DNA of 64,000 nt, from NCBI RefSeq assembly GCF_988243305.1, contig NZ_OZ547136.1; one strand, 5' to 3'. Positions 54,136-61,414 of the stretch are shown here, piece after piece (position 1 is the stretch's first letter; each line of letters starts with the position of its first letter). The notes below the pieces were generated by a model that worked only from the letters and a program-made list of their open reading frames with translations, was not told the origin of the DNA and did not search any database. Position numbers and translations under genes: made by a program.

Positions 54136-55288
<1,153 letters not shown>

Positions 55289-55487
55289 GACAGGATTTCC
55301 TTGTGTATGTGGGGTGCTCTGTGGCGCTCTGAGATGTGATTTGATTGAGGGTTTTACAGCGCGGACATTTAACTTCCAGATAACTGAAGCTGGCTCGTGC
55401 CAGTAGCTTGTTACAATGTCGGCACCGTATGTTTCGATACATGGCCGCATAACCTCCTGCTTTGTTGTTGATATCTTTATCACTCAA

Positions 55488-55508
55488 TCGATCGACAAAA
55501 ACGATCGA
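55488..55508 (-). promoter_or_regulatory. Paired GATC sites upstream of com-mom
   Basis: GATC at 55490-55493 and 55503-55506, about 50-65 bp upstream of the com start. Confidence 0.35.
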
Positions 55509-55698
55509 TTTGATTTATTTAATTGATACAACAAATAACACGAAATGTCATTAGCGAAAATTTATGAGTTTGATCACTAATTTTAAACGGTGCTGTAACG
55601 CATAAGTGCTGAATGATTGTACATTTGAATACCGCAAAGCAAACAAATCAACTAATTTATAGAAGTCAATTGGTTAATTGCCAGCGTAAGAGGCTGCT

Positions 55699-55992
55699 AT
55701 GGACAATCATGTAACGACGAGAAATCGAAAAATGATTGAAAATGCGGAAATCTATAATGATTATTTTTCCGATTATTCAGATGCCTGCAAATACAGTTCG
55801 AGTGCGGGAGAGTTCATATGCTTCAACTTTTTTATTAAATCTTATGTTTTTCCTCCACAGCAAGAAGATGGAGGTGTGCCACCTCCTGAAATCACTTTGC
55901 ACCGTATAGCCTCCGTCTCAATGATGGAGCAACAGGCTAATGAGCTGTATAGCATTCTGGGAACGATTCTACAAAAGCGTGAATCGGACTAA
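55699..55992 (+). CDS. Hypothetical protein (97 aa), opposite strand, AT-rich
   Basis: ORF with AAGAGG SD; low-GC context. Confidence 0.35.
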   Translation: MDNHVTTRNRKMIENAEIYNDYFSDYSDACKYSSSAGEFICFNFFIKSYVFPPQQEDGGVPPPEITLHRIASVSMMEQQANELYSILGTILQKRESD

Positions 55993-56159
55993 TGATACCG
56001 GTTCATTTGCCTGCCCGGATGGGGAAGCAGGATTGACTGCTCCATAAGCAGCTATATTTCTGAATACGAAATACTATCCAGCGATTACATATGGCTGGAT
56101 AGCGGCAAAGATGTTTTCATTAGTGTCAAACCGGCAGAGGACACCACCGGTTTGTATTG

Positions 56160-56414
56160 TTACATCATGGTACTGTCAGTTCCGGGCTGAGCCGGGTCTG
56201 GTTGCTCTGGCTGCGCGTCGGTTTTCGGCTCATTATCAGCATCACTGGCCGCAACTGCTGGCCCAATAAGTTTTGCCAGCACTTCATCAACGTAAGTGTC
56301 GATTTGTGCCTCAAAATCCTTGCGGACCTGCGCTTTCAGCAACTTATTTACTTCACCGGAATACAGTGCCTGTTTTACCAGGTCTTCAGTGACGGTGCCT
56401 TTAATTTCTGGCAT
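56160..56414 (-). CDS. Hypothetical small protein (84 aa)
   Basis: AGGAGG SD with 6-nt spacer; acidic proline-rich C-terminus. Confidence 0.5.
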   Translation of the reverse strand: MPEIKGTVTEDLVKQALYSGEVNKLLKAQVRKDFEAQIDTYVDEVLAKLIGPAVAASDADNEPKTDAQPEQPDPAQPGTDSTMM

Positions 56415-56449
56415 GTATATCCTCCTTATGCGGGAATAAAGCCCTGCAA

Positions 56450-56632
56450 TCAGGGCTGGGTCGGGTCTTTTGGGAGCGGAGTTACCTGCGCTGTTTTACT
56501 GAGTTTTTCAGCTGCTGCGTCCTCAATTTTGCGGCGAACATAATTTCTGATGGCCTTATAACCACCACTCACCAGATATAACGCACATACTGCCGTGCAG
56601 AAATACAATAAAATAAGCTGTAAAAATGTCAT
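56450..56632 (-). CDS. Hypothetical small membrane protein (60 aa)
   Basis: ATG 56632 with GGGAGGG SD; one predicted TM helix; hairpin at 56441-56456 overlapping stop. Confidence 0.45.
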   Translation of the reverse strand: MTFLQLILLYFCTAVCALYLVSGGYKAIRNYVRRKIEDAAAEKLSKTAQVTPLPKDPTQP

Positions 56633-56776
56633 TATCCCTCCCAATTATTGACATGGTGTTGACACCGGTAATATCTGTTAGGTAAAAAGGTGCACTGCAT
56701 TTTTTGCTTTGGATATAACGATCTTTTTGCCGCCGGTTTCTTGTTTTCCCTTACCGGCGGCATTTTTTTATCCTGC

Positions 56777-58831
56777 TTACGCGTTATTCACTTCCACCAC
56801 GATACTGTCAATCAGTACCGGGTAAGTCGCATTTTTAGTGATATCGGTCACGCGCAACTTGTCTGCCGTAAACGTGCCGACCGGAGACTGCGACAGCATG
56901 AATGGTGTCCCGTCCTTACCATCAATGACCGGCGTCACCTCAATACTGTTGTTACCGGCAAAACGGAAGCCCAGCGTATGCCATTCGTTATTAAATGCGC
57001 CGAATGACCCCAGCTTCGTGTTCTGCGCCGTGTTTCCTTTGTGATACATCACGTTAAGGTCTGTGGCATCGCTCTGTACGTAGAACGATGCCAGCAGGTT
57101 ATGACCGGCATTTCCTTCCAGAGTAACCCCTTGCGGCAGGGCAGAAACCGGCCAGTACAGCGCCAGTGCGTACTGATTAGCCGTAAGCGCGCCATCGAGT
57201 TTAAAACGACAACTGACAAGACCACCTTTACCCAGCAGGTCCGCACCATTACCAGCATCATGCTCAAGGTACCAGGGGGCTCTTCCTGTTTCCTTGGTCA
57301 GTTTCATTGCCTTACCCCCGCTGGCTCCGGCATCATCCACGATTTGAGCCTTGCCACCTCCGGCAGCCCAACCCTGTGGTGTCAACCGTCCTTCAGACTC
57401 AGATGCCCGGTAAGCAAATAGCGTACTCATCGTCGTGGTGTCTGCGGGTGGCGTGGACGGTTTTGATGGTGTATCAGGTGACGGCTTCTCATCCGGTGGT
57501 GTCACGGTCTGCCCGCGCATCAGTTCAGCCGTGCGCCCTGCATGGAGCATAATAGCTGAGGCCAGACGGTCTGAAATGACGCCCCTGCGTGCCCATGAGC
57601 TGAAATGGCTGTCACGCTGTGTCGAAACAAAACTGCCCTGGGTTCGGGATGCTGCACCGTAATACCCGACAGCCACAATATCCGGGTCTTCCGCCGGAGC
57701 ATTCGTTGGCGTGCTCTGTCCATTCTCATCCGTCAGGAACGGTACAAAGAAAATTTTCTGTGCTTCCTTGCCTTTGTAGCCACCGTATACTGCCTCATAT
57801 TTATCGGTGCCAGCGTTTTTCCAGTAATACGTGGTATCACCGCAAATCCACGGCACCGTGGTGGCATTTCCACTCACGCACTGCGCAGCAAGCGGAGCCA
57901 GGTCAGTTCTGAACTGCTGAACCATGGCCGTGAATAAACTATTATGCTGCTGGCTTCCTGAGGCAAGGTCTGCCTCTCCCTGCATCCAGACCACAGCCAG
58001 AAGTTTGTTTTTCGGGTTTTTCGCCAGCGCGACTTTGGTGCGGCTTACCAGGTCCTGATACAGAGGTTTACCGGCCCCCCAGCGTGAAGAATCAGCGGAA
58101 GCACCGCTGGCCTCACTGAATGAGCCGTCGGCTCCAGTGGTGAATGCTGACCCGCCACGACAACAGGGCACCAGAAGTATCCCGGCATTCTGTGGGATAT
58201 AGGGAAGCAGTTTTTTGGCAATATGCAACCCCTGACCGACAGTCCCGTACTGGCCTTTTGCCAGATCAGCTTTCGGGTGGTTTATCCCGCTCATATCCTG
58301 AACATCATGCAGGCAGTGGTCTGCCGGAATGATGTCGTTGTATGTACACGACGTACCGTTGGGCGTTACCGCACTGCGGCGTGCCAGTTGCTTAATGCGT
58401 GGGTCCGGGCGGTCAAACGAATCCGGTAACGGCAGCCCCTCGCCGTAGGCCATGCCATTTGACTGACCCGCGAGAATGACAACAAAGTAATATTCCGGCT
58501 CTGAACTGCTGCCATTCGTGCTACCGGAAGGCCCGGCGTTATCCGGTGCATTCCAGTCGGAGGGCGTGAGCGTTCCGGCCACGTCAGATGTGATTGGAAT
58601 GATGCCAGTCACGCCTGAACTGGTGATTTCTGCACTGGGATTACCGGATACCGGCATTACCCATAATGGCTCTTTCGTGCTGAAGCGGATCACGCAGTCT
58701 GCGAAGGTGATCCCCCCTTTATTACCCGAAGGGCGGAAAGGGCTTTCAATAAATGCCACCGTGCCACCGGCAACCTTGACTGAAAACTCTCCGGGCATGG
58801 CGGAGAGCATTTTCCACTTGGAGTCTGACAT
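56777..58831 (-). CDS. Prophage cargo protein with SGNH/SASA-type esterase-like domain (684 aa)
   Basis: Motif YYFVVILAGQSNGMAYGEG (GQSN block); Ser/Thr/Pro-rich linker; C-terminal beta-rich domain; start codon uncertain. Confidence 0.55.
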   Translation of the reverse strand: MSDSKWKMLSAMPGEFSVKVAGGTVAFIESPFRPSGNKGGITFADCVIRFSTKEPLWVMPVSGNPSAEITSSGVTGIIPITSDVAGTLTPSDWNAPDNAGPSGSTNGSSSEPEYYFVVILAGQSNGMAYGEGLPLPDSFDRPDPRIKQLARRSAVTPNGTSCTYNDIIPADHCLHDVQDMSGINHPKADLAKGQYGTVGQGLHIAKKLLPYIPQNAGILLVPCCRGGSAFTTGADGSFSEASGASADSSRWGAGKPLYQDLVSRTKVALAKNPKNKLLAVVWMQGEADLASGSQQHNSLFTAMVQQFRTDLAPLAAQCVSGNATTVPWICGDTTYYWKNAGTDKYEAVYGGYKGKEAQKIFFVPFLTDENGQSTPTNAPAEDPDIVAVGYYGAASRTQGSFVSTQRDSHFSSWARRGVISDRLASAIMLHAGRTAELMRGQTVTPPDEKPSPDTPSKPSTPPADTTTMSTLFAYRASESEGRLTPQGWAAGGGKAQIVDDAGASGGKAMKLTKETGRAPWYLEHDAGNGADLLGKGGLVSCRFKLDGALTANQYALALYWPVSALPQGVTLEGNAGHNLLASFYVQSDATDLNVMYHKGNTAQNTKLGSFGAFNNEWHTLGFRFAGNNSIEVTPVIDGKDGTPFMLSQSPVGTFTADKLRVTDITKNATYPVLIDSIVVEVNNA

Positions 58832-58916
58832 CGTCTTTTCTGCCTGTTTCTGAATTAAACAGAGTCAGAATAGCGACCGCTGAAAAATATGTGTTTTGCG
58901 GAAATTCAAAAAAGCG

Positions 58917-59489
58917 TCACGGTACTTTTGGTGACGGAGCTGGTGAGGCAGGAAAATAACGATAAAGGGTGGAAAGGCCAATATCAAATATCAGTGCGAT
59001 TTGTTTACGGGACTCGCCATTAGCCAGCAAACGGGCGATTTGCTCCCGCTCTTTCTCTGTCAGTTTCTGAGGTCTGCCGCCATGACGCCCCTGAGCACGG
59101 GCAGCAGCAAGACCCGCGCGTGTACGTTCAATAATGAGTTCCCGCTCCATTTCCGCCAGCGCGCCCATTATATGGAAAAAGAAACGTCCCATGGGAGTGG
59201 ATGTATCAATATTGTCCGTAATGCTGCGGAAGTTAACGCCGCGTTGCCGGAGTTCTTCTGTTAAAAGGACAAGGTGCTGCATACTGCGTCCAAGGCGATC
59301 CAGTTTCCAGACCAGCAGGGTATCCCCTGGCCGGAGTCGCTTTAATGCGCGTTTAAGTCCGGGACGCTCCCTTGTCTTACCGCTTATTCTATCTTCGAAA
59401 AACAGCTCACATCCTGCACATTCCAGCGCATTTCTTTGTAGCGCCGTATTCTGGTCATTTGTTGACACCCTGATATACCCAATCAGCAT
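58917..59489 (-). CDS. Serine DNA invertase, Gin/Pin/Hin family
   Basis: MLIGYIRVSTNDQ...WKLDRLGRS with catalytic Ser and C-terminal HTH; adjacent to invertible segment. Confidence 0.9.
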   Translation of the reverse strand: MLIGYIRVSTNDQNTALQRNALECAGCELFFEDRISGKTRERPGLKRALKRLRPGDTLLVWKLDRLGRSMQHLVLLTEELRQRGVNFRSITDNIDTSTPMGRFFFHIMGALAEMERELIIERTRAGLAAARAQGRHGGRPQKLTEKEREQIARLLANGESRKQIALIFDIGLSTLYRYFPASPAPSPKVP

Positions 59490-59554
59490 ACGATTTCCTT
59501 ATTATAAAAAGCCGGAATTGTCGCATGAGGAATAAAACAGAGTTAATCCTGGCT

Positions 59555-59580
59555 TTCCTGAAAACCTCGGTTTACGGGAA
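59555..59580. other. Invertase crossover site (gix/hix-like), left
   Basis: TTCCTGAAAACC-TC-GGTTTACGGGAA: 12-2-12 imperfect palindrome matching Gin/Hin site half-sites. Confidence 0.55.
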
Positions 59581-59690
59581 ACGGTAAACAGGGCGGCGAA
59601 TGCCCTGCCATCGGACGGCACCGCCGTTGCCGCGAATAGACTCGCCACCCCAAGAAATATTAATGGGGTTCCCTTTGACGGGACGCAGGA
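59567..59690. repeat. Inverted repeat, left copy
   Basis: 59567-59636 is an exact reverse complement of 60816-60885; second block 59661-59690 matches 60762-60791 with 1 mismatch. Confidence 0.75.
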
Positions 59691-59928
59691 CATAAACATC
59701 ACTTCTGGTATAACACAGCAGGATGCGGATTCCCGATATATCCAGGATATCAGGCTGGGAGCAGAGAACAGGCAGGTAATGTACGGTGGGGCATATTACT
59801 CTGCGTACGGTAATGTTATGGCAGGCCTGCAGATTGACAGTAAAGTTGATGCTTCAAACGATTTTATAGCATTCAGACCCCTGCAAAAATTAGTCGGAGG
59901 TACATGGATTACGGTATCTCAGTTATAA
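59567..59928 (+). other. Promoterless alternative tail-fiber C-terminal cassette
   Basis: No start codon; reading frame continues from the inverted repeat and ends at TAA 59926-59928; encodes [23 protein letters not shown]... shared with the expressed fiber then diverges. Confidence 0.5.
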
Positions 59929-59979
59929 ATAGTCAGTAAATAATATATTTTAAAACAGATTTATTTCCAGGAGGATTTT

Positions 59980-60501
59980 ATGGAACTAAAAAATATAACC
60001 CGTTATTATCCTGAAAATATGCCATATGGTAATAATGTTCAGTATTTCCAGAGTGAAGATGGTAAGGATTTCTACGAATCCCTGCCATTATTCACCAAAA
60101 AATATAAACTTTGCATAACACCTGACAGCGGCGTTATCTGCTCAATATCACAGGACGCCTCGGCGCTGTATCCTGCGGGGTTTTCTGTGGTTGAGGTCGA
60201 TGAACTCCCTGAAGGCACGGATATTTCAGGAAACTGGAAGTTTGATAATGGCATAATCTCCCGTATTCCGGTTAACTACGCAAGAAAACTGGAAGCAATG
60301 CGCCAGTCATATCTTAATCAGGCATATGAAAAAATTAATGACTGGAGAACGGAGCTACAACTGGGCACCATCAGCGATGAAGACAGAGCAGCACTTACCC
60401 AATGGATGGCATACATCAGTCAGGTGAAGAAAATGGAACTACCCGCCATTAAAACAGAAGCTGAATTTAACGCCATTAAATGGCCTGAGCAGCCACAGTA
60501 A
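59980..60501 (+). CDS. Tail fiber assembly protein (chaperone)
   Basis: 173 aa; AGGAGG SD; resembles tail fiber assembly proteins as I recall them. Confidence 0.75.
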   Translation: MELKNITRYYPENMPYGNNVQYFQSEDGKDFYESLPLFTKKYKLCITPDSGVICSISQDASALYPAGFSVVEVDELPEGTDISGNWKFDNGIISRIPVNYARKLEAMRQSYLNQAYEKINDWRTELQLGTISDEDRAALTQWMAYISQVKKMELPAIKTEAEFNAIKWPEQPQ

Positions 60502-60505
60502 TAAA

Positions 60506-60523
60506 GAAGGCCGGAAGGCCTTC
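60506..60523. terminator. Hairpin between convergent tfa and fiber genes
   Basis: GAAGGCC-GGAA-GGCCTTC; T-rich on the minus strand. Confidence 0.4.
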
Positions 60524-60532
60524 TGAATATCA

Positions 60533-61414
60533 TTATATACTTGCAGCCGTCACCCATGCTCCATTTAACAGATACTGCAACGGCCGGTAATACACGCCGC
60601 CGACGTTATCTGCCGTATTCTTACCGACATCCTGTACTTTAATTCCGGTAAGAACATTGCCGCCCCCCAGATTCAGATCCCAGCTTTCCCATGTTCCGGG
60701 CATATGTGCGGTCACCGACCCCAGTCTTATGGCGGTTACTGTTCCTGATGAGATAGTGATATCCTGCGTCCCGTCAAAGGGAACACCATTAATTGTGTGG
60801 GCATTTGCCAGCCTGTTCGCGGCAACGGCGGTGCCGTCCGATGGCAGGGCATTCGCCGCCCTGTTTACCGTTTCCCGTAAACCGACGTTATCGATAAAAG
60901 CCCCTTTATCCGGAATGTCTGCGCCGTTCTGCTCCCTGCGCAGGTAACGGTTATCACCTTCGCTTTTGCTGTAAACATCCAGATTATTACGGGCGGTTCC
61001 CTTATTCTCCAGGTCGGCGAGATTCTGATCCTTCGCCAGGGCATTAACGTCAGCGGGACCAAGACTGTTTTTTGTGGCAAGCGTCCCCAGACCAAGATAA
61101 CCACGGGCCAGACGCTGGGCCTCCGCACCGGCATCAGCAATTTCTTTCAGGTTATTTTTCCGGGAAAAGGCATTCGCAGCGATAATGGCTTTAATGGACA
61201 GCGTAAGCTGGTTTAACTGCGCCTTATCCGGCTGAATACTGGCTTCAGCCAGAATATTCAGCAGTTCGGCCTGGAGAATATTCAGCCAGTCCTGACCAAT
61301 CCAGCTGATACCTTTTTGTCCGTCACCTTCGGTAAACCAGGTGGTGGTATTACTCTGCGCCGGTGCCAGCGCAGGCATATTCGCCACGCCGGAATTATTA
61401 TCAACATGAAACAT
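60533..61414 (-). CDS. Tail fiber protein (constant N-terminus plus currently expressed variable C-terminus)
   Basis: 293-aa ORF; crossover site lies inside the gene at 60872-60897. Confidence 0.75.
60762..60885. repeat. Inverted repeat, right copy
   Basis: Reverse complement of 59567-59690. Confidence 0.75.
60872..60897. other. Invertase crossover site (gix/hix-like), right
   Basis: TTCCCGTAAACC-GA-CGTTATCGATAA; inner half-site and central dinucleotide are the exact reverse complement of the left site. Confidence 0.5.

Follow-up and report, generated by a model that had tools for sequence, protein, structure and literature searches.

The question raised by this locus is what lies between the DNA invertase gene gin and the com and mom genes in a Mu-like prophage of Escherichia coli. 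The stretch of DNA analysed here, called the window below, comprises 64,000 nucleotides of contig NZ_OZ547136.1 (assembly GCF_988243305.1), and it closes with the right end of such a prophage. Read from high to low coordinates, the gene order is baseplate and tail-fibre genes, an invertible G-type segment, gin, the block of genes considered here, com and mom. The flanking genes and their order are those of phage Mu, which also has GATC sites at the equivalent place upstream of com. However, in Mu (AF083977) only 94 bp, including Pmom, separate the end of gin (35673) from the start of com (35768), whereas in the window com lies about 3.43 kb beyond the gin stop (58917), and the interval accommodates four genes. 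The initial annotation, which was made from the letters alone, had reported about 3.4 kb of extra sequence at this place, and this is correct.

From comparative evidence, we consider that the block is probably a prophage NanS-p module, consisting of a sialate O-acetylesterase gene and the small genes DUF1378 and DUF826, and that, in Mu-like prophages of the Sp18 family, to which Sp18 of O157:H7 Sakai belongs, it constitutes a resident late operon close to the right end. The three-gene NanS-p module is known already from Shiga-toxin-type lambdoid prophages, and its function is not new. The searched literature describes NanS-p in Shiga toxin (Stx) phages and other prophages, none of them Mu-like, and does not mention ECs_4993, the Sp18 counterpart of the esterase. 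What this literature does not contain is the N-terminal domain that stands in place of DUF1737, the apparent presence of the block throughout the Sp18 family, and a motif resembling a late promoter. The domain swap and the promoter-like motif are the parts that differ from described NanS-p systems, and both were missed in the initial annotation. The Sakai genome annotates ECs_4993–ECs_4996 as hypothetical, and RefSeq labels the esterase 'DUF6645 domain-containing protein' or 'hypothetical protein'.

The largest gene encodes a protein of 684 residues, in the sequence of which no signal peptide was found. It matches phrog_143 over residues 71–684 (E = 1e-295) and its sequence coincides with that of protein cluster P0010 (599 member sequences). 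Profile hidden Markov model (HMM) searches, a check proposed at the outset, were run and identified the Pfam domains SASA (residues 117–312) and DUF6645 (residues 533–650, E = 2.9e-67) in this protein, as well as phrog_494 and phrog_311 in its two small neighbours. The description first given, of an SGNH/SASA protein with a GQSN motif, a Ser/Thr/Pro-rich linker and a β-rich C-terminal domain, therefore holds.

The catalytic domain aligns with E. coli NanS (chain 3pt5_A) with 58% identity over 315 residues (residues 110–428, E = 1.8e-117). In NanS, Ser19 and His301 form the catalytic dyad, Gln18 occupies the oxyanion hole, and a catalytic Asp is lacking (PMC9063846). These residues align with Ser124, His409 and Gln123 of the protein described here (codons at 58460–58465 for Gln123-Ser124 and at 57605–57607 for His409), which are invariant among 19 homologues. 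So too are SGNH block I (GQSN, residues 122–125), block III (the SASA-type QGE, residues 284–286) and block V (SH, residues 408–409), and as in NanS there is no DxxH aspartate in the protein. The SGNH catalytic residues are thus present, the geometry of the site being judged solely by alignment to 3pt5.

The C-terminal domain (residues 469–683) is 69% identical to the C-domain of NanS-p from phage phi24B (6yp6, E = 7e-98). For the lectin-like domain of the phi24B protein, the aromatic residues Y510, Y515, Y540 and F611 have been proposed as the sugar site (PMC10462455), and these are kept here as Y554, Y559, Y584 and F654. Taken with the match to 3pt5 and the conserved Ser, His and Gln, this identifies the protein, as far as sequence can do so, as a NanS-p-type sialate O-acetylesterase, which is what the initial annotation had suspected. 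Lambdoid NanS-p enzymes are active esterases on 5-N-acetyl-9-O-acetylneuraminic acid (Neu5,9Ac2) and de-O-acetylate mucin glycans, and their substrates include mono-, di- and tri-O-acetylated mucin sialic acids (PMC8065619; PMC8319020). The lambdoid genes are co-induced with late genes, and lysogens gain a growth advantage on Neu5,9Ac2 (PMC8065619; PMC8319020). Because of its homology to these assayed enzymes, the protein described here is expected to be active on O-acetyl sialic acids. The coordinates of the domains and of the surrounding features are collected in Table 1.

Table 1. Features at the right end of the Mu-like prophage, in window coordinates, listed from high to low position after the first row. 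Aa, amino acids; ORF, open reading frame; SD, Shine-Dalgarno sequence; pLDDT, predicted local distance difference test; PGAP, Prokaryotic Genome Annotation Pipeline.
Feature	Position	Strand	Basis or remark
Right end of Mu-like E. coli prophage	last 9.6 kb of window	(-)	
gin-type DNA invertase gene, upper flank	58917..59489	(-)	phrog_125, E = 1.9e-94; 70% DNA identity to Mu gin
Candidate C-dependent late promoter	58867..58908	(-)	16-nt motif TGAATTTCCGCAAAAC (58908-58893), 20 bp, TATTCT (58872-58867)
NanS-p-type sialate O-acetylesterase gene, 684 aa, 72 kDa	56777..58831	(-)	ORF and family matches
N-terminal domain, aa 1-93	58553..58831	(-)	specific to Mu-like prophages; stands in for DUF1737
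Disordered Ser/Gly/Pro linker, aa 94-112	58496..58552	(-)	pLDDT <50
Recombination tract, 88.6% DNA identity to lambdoid nanS-p	56574..58501		blastn against lambdoid locus L002
SGNH type II (SASA) catalytic domain, aa 113-430	57542..58495	(-)	Pfam, 3pt5 match
Thr/Pro/Ser-rich interdomain linker, aa 431-468	57428..57541	(-)	sequence
C-terminal lectin-like jelly-roll domain (DUF6645), aa 469-684	56780..57427	(-)	Pfam and 6yp6
DUF1378 gene, 60-aa single-pass membrane protein, strong SD	56450..56632	(-)	phrog_494, E = 1.6e-32; PGAP
DUF826 gene, 84-aa acidic helical protein, Pro-rich tail	56160..56414	(-)	phrog_311, E = 4.9e-28; PGAP
Opposite-strand acidic ORF, 97 aa (PGAP start 55732)	55699..55992	(+)	DNA 35-39% GC
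Inverted repeat with two GATC sites, directly upstream of com	55486..55510		sequence and scan
com, lower flank	55242-55442	(-)	phrog_1384, phrog_6417/13819 (com/mom together); PGAP
mom, lower flank	54551-55288	(-)	72% DNA identity to Mu mom; PGAP

The two small genes downstream of the esterase are those that had been noticed for their strong SD sequences, one predicted to encode a membrane protein and the other an acidic, Pro-rich protein, and they can now be named as DUF1378 and DUF826. The DUF1378 protein has a pI of 9.3 and a single N-terminal hydrophobic helix. Translation most probably begins with the ATG at 56632, which follows GGGAGG, and not with the TTG at 56644. The DUF826 protein has a pI of 4.2, and its gene is preceded by AAGGAGG. 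In a lambdoid prophage the order is Q, tRNAs, SASA esterase, DUF1378, DUF826, holin and lysozyme, and the same small genes have been described between nanS-p and S (PMC10462455). Since the same trio is found there, the esterase, DUF1378 and DUF826 constitute one known module and are not unrelated cargo. No function is given for DUF826 or DUF1378 in the searched literature.

The N-terminal part of the esterase is of a different kind. Lambdoid NanS-p proteins, of 640–655 residues, carry DUF1737 (PF08410) at the N-terminus. PF08410 has no Pfam match in the esterase, whose N-terminus cannot be aligned with the DUF1737 N-termini of lambdoid NanS-p, and it is found in none of the relatives of 678–691 residues that match end to end, all of which have SASA and DUF6645. 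Homology to the lambdoid copies, of the nucleotide and the protein sequence alike, ends at 58501 (about residue 110), at the first linker. The domain upstream of this linker (the N-domain) has no match in Pfam, PHROGs, NCBIfam or PADLOC. Word-indexed protein searches, using either the domain alone or a profile of four sequences, returned only fragments of the same proteins, and an exhaustive phmmer search of 1.84 billion representative proteins returned four matches, namely two window-type fragments, one Salmonella copy and one apparently spurious sequence. The copy from Salmonella enterica is 30% identical, is fused to a NanS-like domain, and lies directly downstream of gin in a Mu-like prophage. 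A scan of viral contigs located 34 N-domain loci belonging to two sequence types only; a scan of genome contigs gave no relative, and HMM searches of the 39-kb prophage gave no paralogue. The second allele, which is 59–62% identical, occurs in Sp18-type Mu-like phages, including Sakai Sp18 (ECs_4993) and Mu-like copies transposed into Stx phages. None of these searches placed the N-domain outside the Mu-like prophages of E. coli, Shigella and Salmonella.

AlphaFold2 predicts the N-domain to be a six-stranded all-β structure (pLDDT about 80), and fold searches with this model gave generic small-barrel matches only. Two groups of entries in the AlphaFold database should be mentioned. A0A730Z4A0 is a 777-residue 'sialate O-acetylesterase' of Salmonella Montevideo with a Mu-type N-domain (37% identity). 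A0A633DL65 and about 20 others, from Salmonella, Citrobacter, Morganella and Pantoea, are stand-alone uncharacterised proteins of approximately 76–83 residues with a predicted fold like that of the N-domain (template modelling score about 0.7 on the target, E 0.005–0.05), one of which is labelled 'phage tail protein'. On these models, the stand-alone family is a possible source of the N-domain. The block had initially been singled out as likely to encode an uncharacterised function, and this remains true of the N-domain, the two small proteins and the opposite-strand ORF, but not of the esterase and lectin parts.

The distribution of the block was analysed in 5426 complete E. coli genomes. The window-type N-domain is present in 27 of these and the Sp18-type in 205, while com/mom regions of this type are present in 232 (about 4%), including O157:H7 Sakai. 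The sum of the two N-domain counts equals the com/mom count, which suggests that every member of the family carries the block, the comparison being one of totals and not of genome sets. Carriers belong to many serotypes and come from many sources. The prophages that carry the block are inserted in dcyD (in the window), ypdB, elfC, xdhA and sorM, and such differing sites are expected because the phage transposes. The block appears to be a fixed feature of a whole Mu-like lineage and not a recent insertion. Its original description as extra cargo is thus right in that the genes are additional to those of Mu, but wrong in so far as it implies independent or newly inserted genes. SfMu of Shigella flexneri was considered as a further carrier and rejected, because its gin–mom product in the polymerase chain reaction is 1.5 kb and the block is therefore absent.

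Ratios of nonsynonymous to synonymous substitution (dN/dS) were calculated against the copy in CI5, which is 87% identical. They are 0.11 for the whole esterase (N-domain 0.035, catalytic domain 0.09, lectin domain 0.12), 0.14 for DUF1378, 0.085 for DUF826 and 0.36 for the opposite-strand ORF. The N-domain is therefore the most constrained part of the protein. All these values are well below 1, which together with the strong family matches shows that the genes did not arise as chance ORFs, and those of the esterase domains and small genes (0.035–0.14) imply that these are not silent pseudogenes, a possibility that had been raised at the outset.

The block is a mosaic. The recombination tract listed in Table 1 is only 69% identical in DNA sequence to the other Mu-like lineage, and by comparison with the lambdoid copy (residues 111–684) the identities are 88% for the catalytic domain, 100% for the Thr/Pro/Ser-rich linker and 94% for the C-domain. 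For the N-domain, DUF826 and most of DUF1378, the nearest sequence is instead the Sp18-type Mu copy. The pattern indicates that lambdoid and Mu-like prophages resident in the same host have undergone gene conversion, which stops at the linker. On a larger scale, the two Mu-like lineages (L044 and L047) are 90–97% identical over most of the genome but 68–78% identical over a contiguous cassette of the tail-fibre C-terminus and G segment, gin, esterase, DUF1378 and DUF826 (window positions approximately 56130–61400). Host-range genes and the esterase module appear to have been exchanged together. The gin gene itself is deleted in CI5 (L005:7365-7668) and frameshifted in DLI.5a (L001:9434-10005), and the esterase block is intact in both; the DLI.5a prophage also has a large internal deletion that joins early genes to the sheath gene. 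The P2-like phages vB_EcoM-569R5 (Peduoviridae, L043), 705R2 and P88 have a NanS-p-like gene adjoining their lysis genes, in one case annotated as similar to a DUF1737 protein, so that the esterase has been recruited by at least three types of phage.

A possible function for the N-domain is suggested by phi24B. In this phage, NanS-p (gp84) is a capsid decoration protein from which the enzyme part is later cleaved off, and DUF1737 of gp84 binds the capsid as a hexamer in the hexon pores (2026 preprint, bioRxiv 10.64898/2026.04.10.717836). In the Mu-like prophages DUF1737 has been swapped exactly at the linker, and the replacement is strongly constrained and restricted to Mu-like phages. These features suggest that the N-domain might be a virion anchor for the Mu-type particle, an unrelated counterpart of DUF1737 on the phi24B capsid, although we put this forward tentatively and with considerable doubt.

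A candidate promoter lies in the 85 bp that separate gin from the esterase start. When up to one mismatch is allowed, the motif TGAWRTYCCGCAAAWC is present at four places on the coding strand of the 44-kb prophage locus, against 0.04 expected: upstream of the lysozyme gene, upstream of the protease I gene, upstream of the esterase, and within the terminase gene. When the motif is required to be followed after 21–24 nt by TANNMT, only the lysozyme, protease and esterase sites remain in the 44 kb. The first two are syntenic with Plys and PI of Mu, and Sp18 has the same motif at its own Plys and PI. Mu late promoters have a -10 but no -35 element, and a 16-bp C-binding element centred at -43.5 (PMC2582627). 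The candidate esterase promoter likewise has no -35, and if its hexamer is placed at -12 to -7 the motif covers approximately -49 to -34, which fits the Mu C site of the same work. The motif is retained in CI5 even though gin has been lost. From the motif, its spacing from the -10 and its likeness to Plys and PI, we infer that this is probably a C-dependent late promoter of the esterase operon. A generic scan of the block for sigma-70 promoters and terminators gave no more sites than expected by chance. Directly past the esterase stop, at 56729–56761, there is a 9-bp G+C-rich hairpin (GCCGCCGGT, 15 nt, ACCGGCGGC), whose loop is longer than 8 nt, so that the terminator scan missed it. A T-run follows it on the plus strand only, and it would therefore terminate antisense transcription and not the esterase operon.

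On the basis of these observations, we hypothesise that the C-type activator of the phage would turn the operon on late in lytic growth, alongside the lysis and head genes. Those cells of the population that undergo lysis would produce the enzyme, which would be released or carried out as they lyse; release at lysis is proposed because of the lack of a signal peptide and the evidence for a late promoter. Outside the cell it would strip 7-, 8- and 9-O-acetyl groups from sialic acids (for example Neu5,9Ac2), either free or on mucin glycans, with the lectin domain keeping it on the glycan, and the de-O-acetylated sialic acids would become usable by E. coli and cleavable by sialidases. More speculatively, the Mu-specific N-domain may fix the enzyme to the Mu-type virion, as DUF1737 does on the phi24B capsid.

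A number of observations weigh against this proposal. As regards the enzyme, block V reads RDSH, whereas the described NanS and NanS-p have RSSH or RASH. An AlphaFold2 model of the full-length protein, from a 19-sequence alignment, had a mean pLDDT of 45 and was discarded. For the Mu-type copies, esterase activity is a prediction from that shown for lambdoid alleles. As regards the promoter, the motif was picked by eye from three sites of which the esterase site was one, and it is absent from Pmom of the window-type phage and from any recognisable PP. Upstream of ECs_4993 there is a weaker match (12/16), at equal spacing from TATGAT. The fourth copy (L044:18870-18885, TGGTATCCCGCAAATC) falls within the coding sequence of the large terminase, some 220 nt before the portal gene. 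A -10-like hexamer is missing at the distance seen elsewhere, and the copy may be a chance occurrence or an internal regulatory site. Finally, the scan found no terminator between gin and the esterase, and read-through from gin would give low constitutive expression in the lysogen.

Such read-through, or transcription from a sigma-70 promoter, is the basis of a different account, in which a little esterase is made constitutively in the uninduced lysogen and serves host nutrition only, with no part in the particle or in lytic growth. Besides the missing terminator, a weak sigma-70-like site in the 3' end of gin is consistent with this, as is the position next to mom at the end of the genome, which is typical of accessory genes, and NanS-p is accepted as a growth advantage for lysogens (PMC8065619). 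However, mucin glycans would be out of reach for an enzyme that lacks a signal peptide and stays in the cytoplasm of an intact lysogen, the spacing and sequence of the late-promoter-like motif favour lytic expression, and lambdoid nanS-p is co-induced with late genes (PMC10462455; PMC8065619). A purely metabolic enzyme would also have no need of a strongly constrained, lineage-specific N-domain, and the chromosomal NanS has no such domain. We therefore regard lysogenic conversion of this kind as unlikely. A second alternative takes up the O-antigen deacetylase or receptor-modifying enzyme that the initial annotation had mentioned as plausible. Here the substrate would be an O-acetylated receptor on the bacterial surface, such as O-antigen or a capsule like O-acetylated K1 polysialic acid, and the enzyme would either aid adsorption as part of the virion or alter the surface of the lysogen so as to block superinfection. 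Particle-borne SGNH esterases that deacetylate surface polysaccharide are known from other phages. The block diverges together with the tail-fibre and G-segment region, as described above, and the polysialic acid that forms the K1 capsule can carry O-acetyl groups (PMC8319020). No specific support for this option was found, though: the closest relatives, NanS at 58% and lambdoid NanS-p at 88%, are characterised sialate O-acetylesterases whose demonstrated substrates are free or mucin-bound O-acetyl sialic acids. The lectin sugar site is conserved with phi24B, the enzyme lacks a signal peptide for its export in a lysogen, and the hosts of the block are of many serotypes and sources, so that we give this alternative a slim chance.

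It could also be argued that the module is a functionless passenger, captured from co-resident lambdoid prophages and hitch-hiking with the phage. The recombination with lambdoid copies is clear (88.6%, against 69% to the other Mu-like lineage), and the prophages are about 2 kb longer than Mu. But purifying selection acts on every esterase domain and on both small genes, the count of block carriers matches that of the com/mom type, the block is shared by two lineages whose sequences here are about 30% different, and a fusion of a 30%-identical N-domain to an esterase occupies the same place in a Salmonella Mu-like prophage. We can give this explanation hardly any credence, and the late NanS-p operon remains the preferred reading.

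It is useful to compare the module with its nearest relatives. It shares with lambdoid NanS-p the homologous SGNH/SASA domain (88% identical to one lambdoid copy), the Thr/Pro linker, the DUF6645 C-domain (69–94% identical), the downstream DUF1378 and DUF826, and apparently late-gene expression. It differs in having an unrelated β domain of about 93 residues instead of DUF1737, and in being carried by a transposable Mu-like myovirus. Its location is between gin and com/mom, whereas the lambdoid genes lie between Q/stx and holin, before the lysis cassette, and its inferred promoter is of the Mu C-type activator class, whereas the lambdoid genes depend on Q antitermination at pR'. Chromosomal NanS (YjhS) has a catalytic domain 58% identical, with the same Ser-His dyad, Gln in the oxyanion hole and lack of a canonical catalytic Asp, but it belongs to the nan regulon, is periplasmic or cellular and has one domain only; the N-terminal domain, linker, lectin domain and two small partner genes are all absent. 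The late promoters of phage Mu, like the putative ones here, lack a -35 and have an activator site around -43, but Mu does not have the apparent fifth late promoter. Sakai Sp18 (ECs_4993–ECs_4996) has the same architecture and position, with identities of 59% for the N-domain, 69% for the catalytic domain, 72% for DUF1378 and 76% for DUF826; its cassette is of another allele all the way from the tail-fibre tips through DUF826, and the ORF beyond it is unrelated.

About 4% of complete E. coli genomes, including O157:H7 Sakai, have a further, overlooked copy of nanS-p in a Mu-like prophage, and counts of nanS-p alleles per strain that are based on DUF1737 or on lambdoid context could miss the Mu-type copy. 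The regulatory scheme of Mu-type phages gains a probable fifth late promoter. The clean swap at the linker offers a testable handle on virion display and on how enzymes are fitted to different capsids. If the N-domain does prove to be an anchor, then esterase plus lectin would be a portable 'mucus-glycan tool' with interchangeable anchors across phage morphotypes (lambdoid podo- and siphoviruses, and P2-like and Mu-like myoviruses), wired in the Mu-like phages into the C-dependent late regulon.

The remaining part of the interval, between DUF826 and com, is variable. The loci compared (window 55488-56159, L045:6384-7000, L004:3182-4032 and L003:7648-8220) are AT-rich, with 38–41% GC. In the window it contains the AT-rich opposite-strand ORF already recorded in the initial annotation, which has no match in Pfam, PHROG, NCBIfam, PADLOC or plasmids but is kept in CI5 with 80% amino-acid identity (97–100 residues across the two). 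Sakai Sp18 has an unrelated opposite-strand ORF, ECs_4996, of 154 residues with a Cys-rich, Zn-ribbon-like C-terminus, and FORC_069 has a truncated ECs_4996-like ORF and an ORF of 66 residues. Except for the last, all these ORFs are opposite to the late-gene strand. The slot looks like a hot spot for morons or possibly defence genes, though PADLOC and Pfam gave no match there. For the small genes and the opposite-strand ORF of the window, a role as a defence system was considered and set aside, there being no weighty PADLOC match, no Pfam match and no plasmid homologue.

At the lower boundary of the block, the inverted repeat upstream of com is the mom-operon control region. Beyond it, mom is not constant in the family. 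In a Mu-like phage inside the Stx2c phage LC727881 (L003:8420-9472), mom is replaced after com by a C5 cytosine DNA methyltransferase of 350 residues, and another member of the Sp18 family also has a C5 cytosine DNA methyltransferase in place of mom. A different DNA-modification enzyme thus stands behind the same translational regulator, com.

The right end of the prophage, mapped against four other insertions, is at approximately 54421–54423 within the host gene dcyD, followed by the host genes tcyL, tcyN and sdiA. The insertion breaks dcyD, the D-cysteine desulfhydrase gene, and creates a chimeric ORF of 140 residues (54136–54558) spanning the prophage right end and the 3' part of dcyD. A complete and nearly identical prophage of about 39 kb is found in FORC_069, and its genes for transposase A/B, Gam, Mor/C-type regulators, lysis, head, tail and baseplate are arranged as in Mu. 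Outside the window, at L044:22013-22092, RefSeq annotates a 'tRNA-OTHER' opposite to the late-gene strand, between head-morphogenesis and G-like genes. The prophages that carry the block are approximately 39.1 kb (L044) and 38,759 bp (L047) long, compared to 36,717 bp for Mu. A headful packager of this kind normally packs 0.5–3 kb of host DNA at the right end, and the extra length of about 2 kb may shorten or abolish this packaged host flank.

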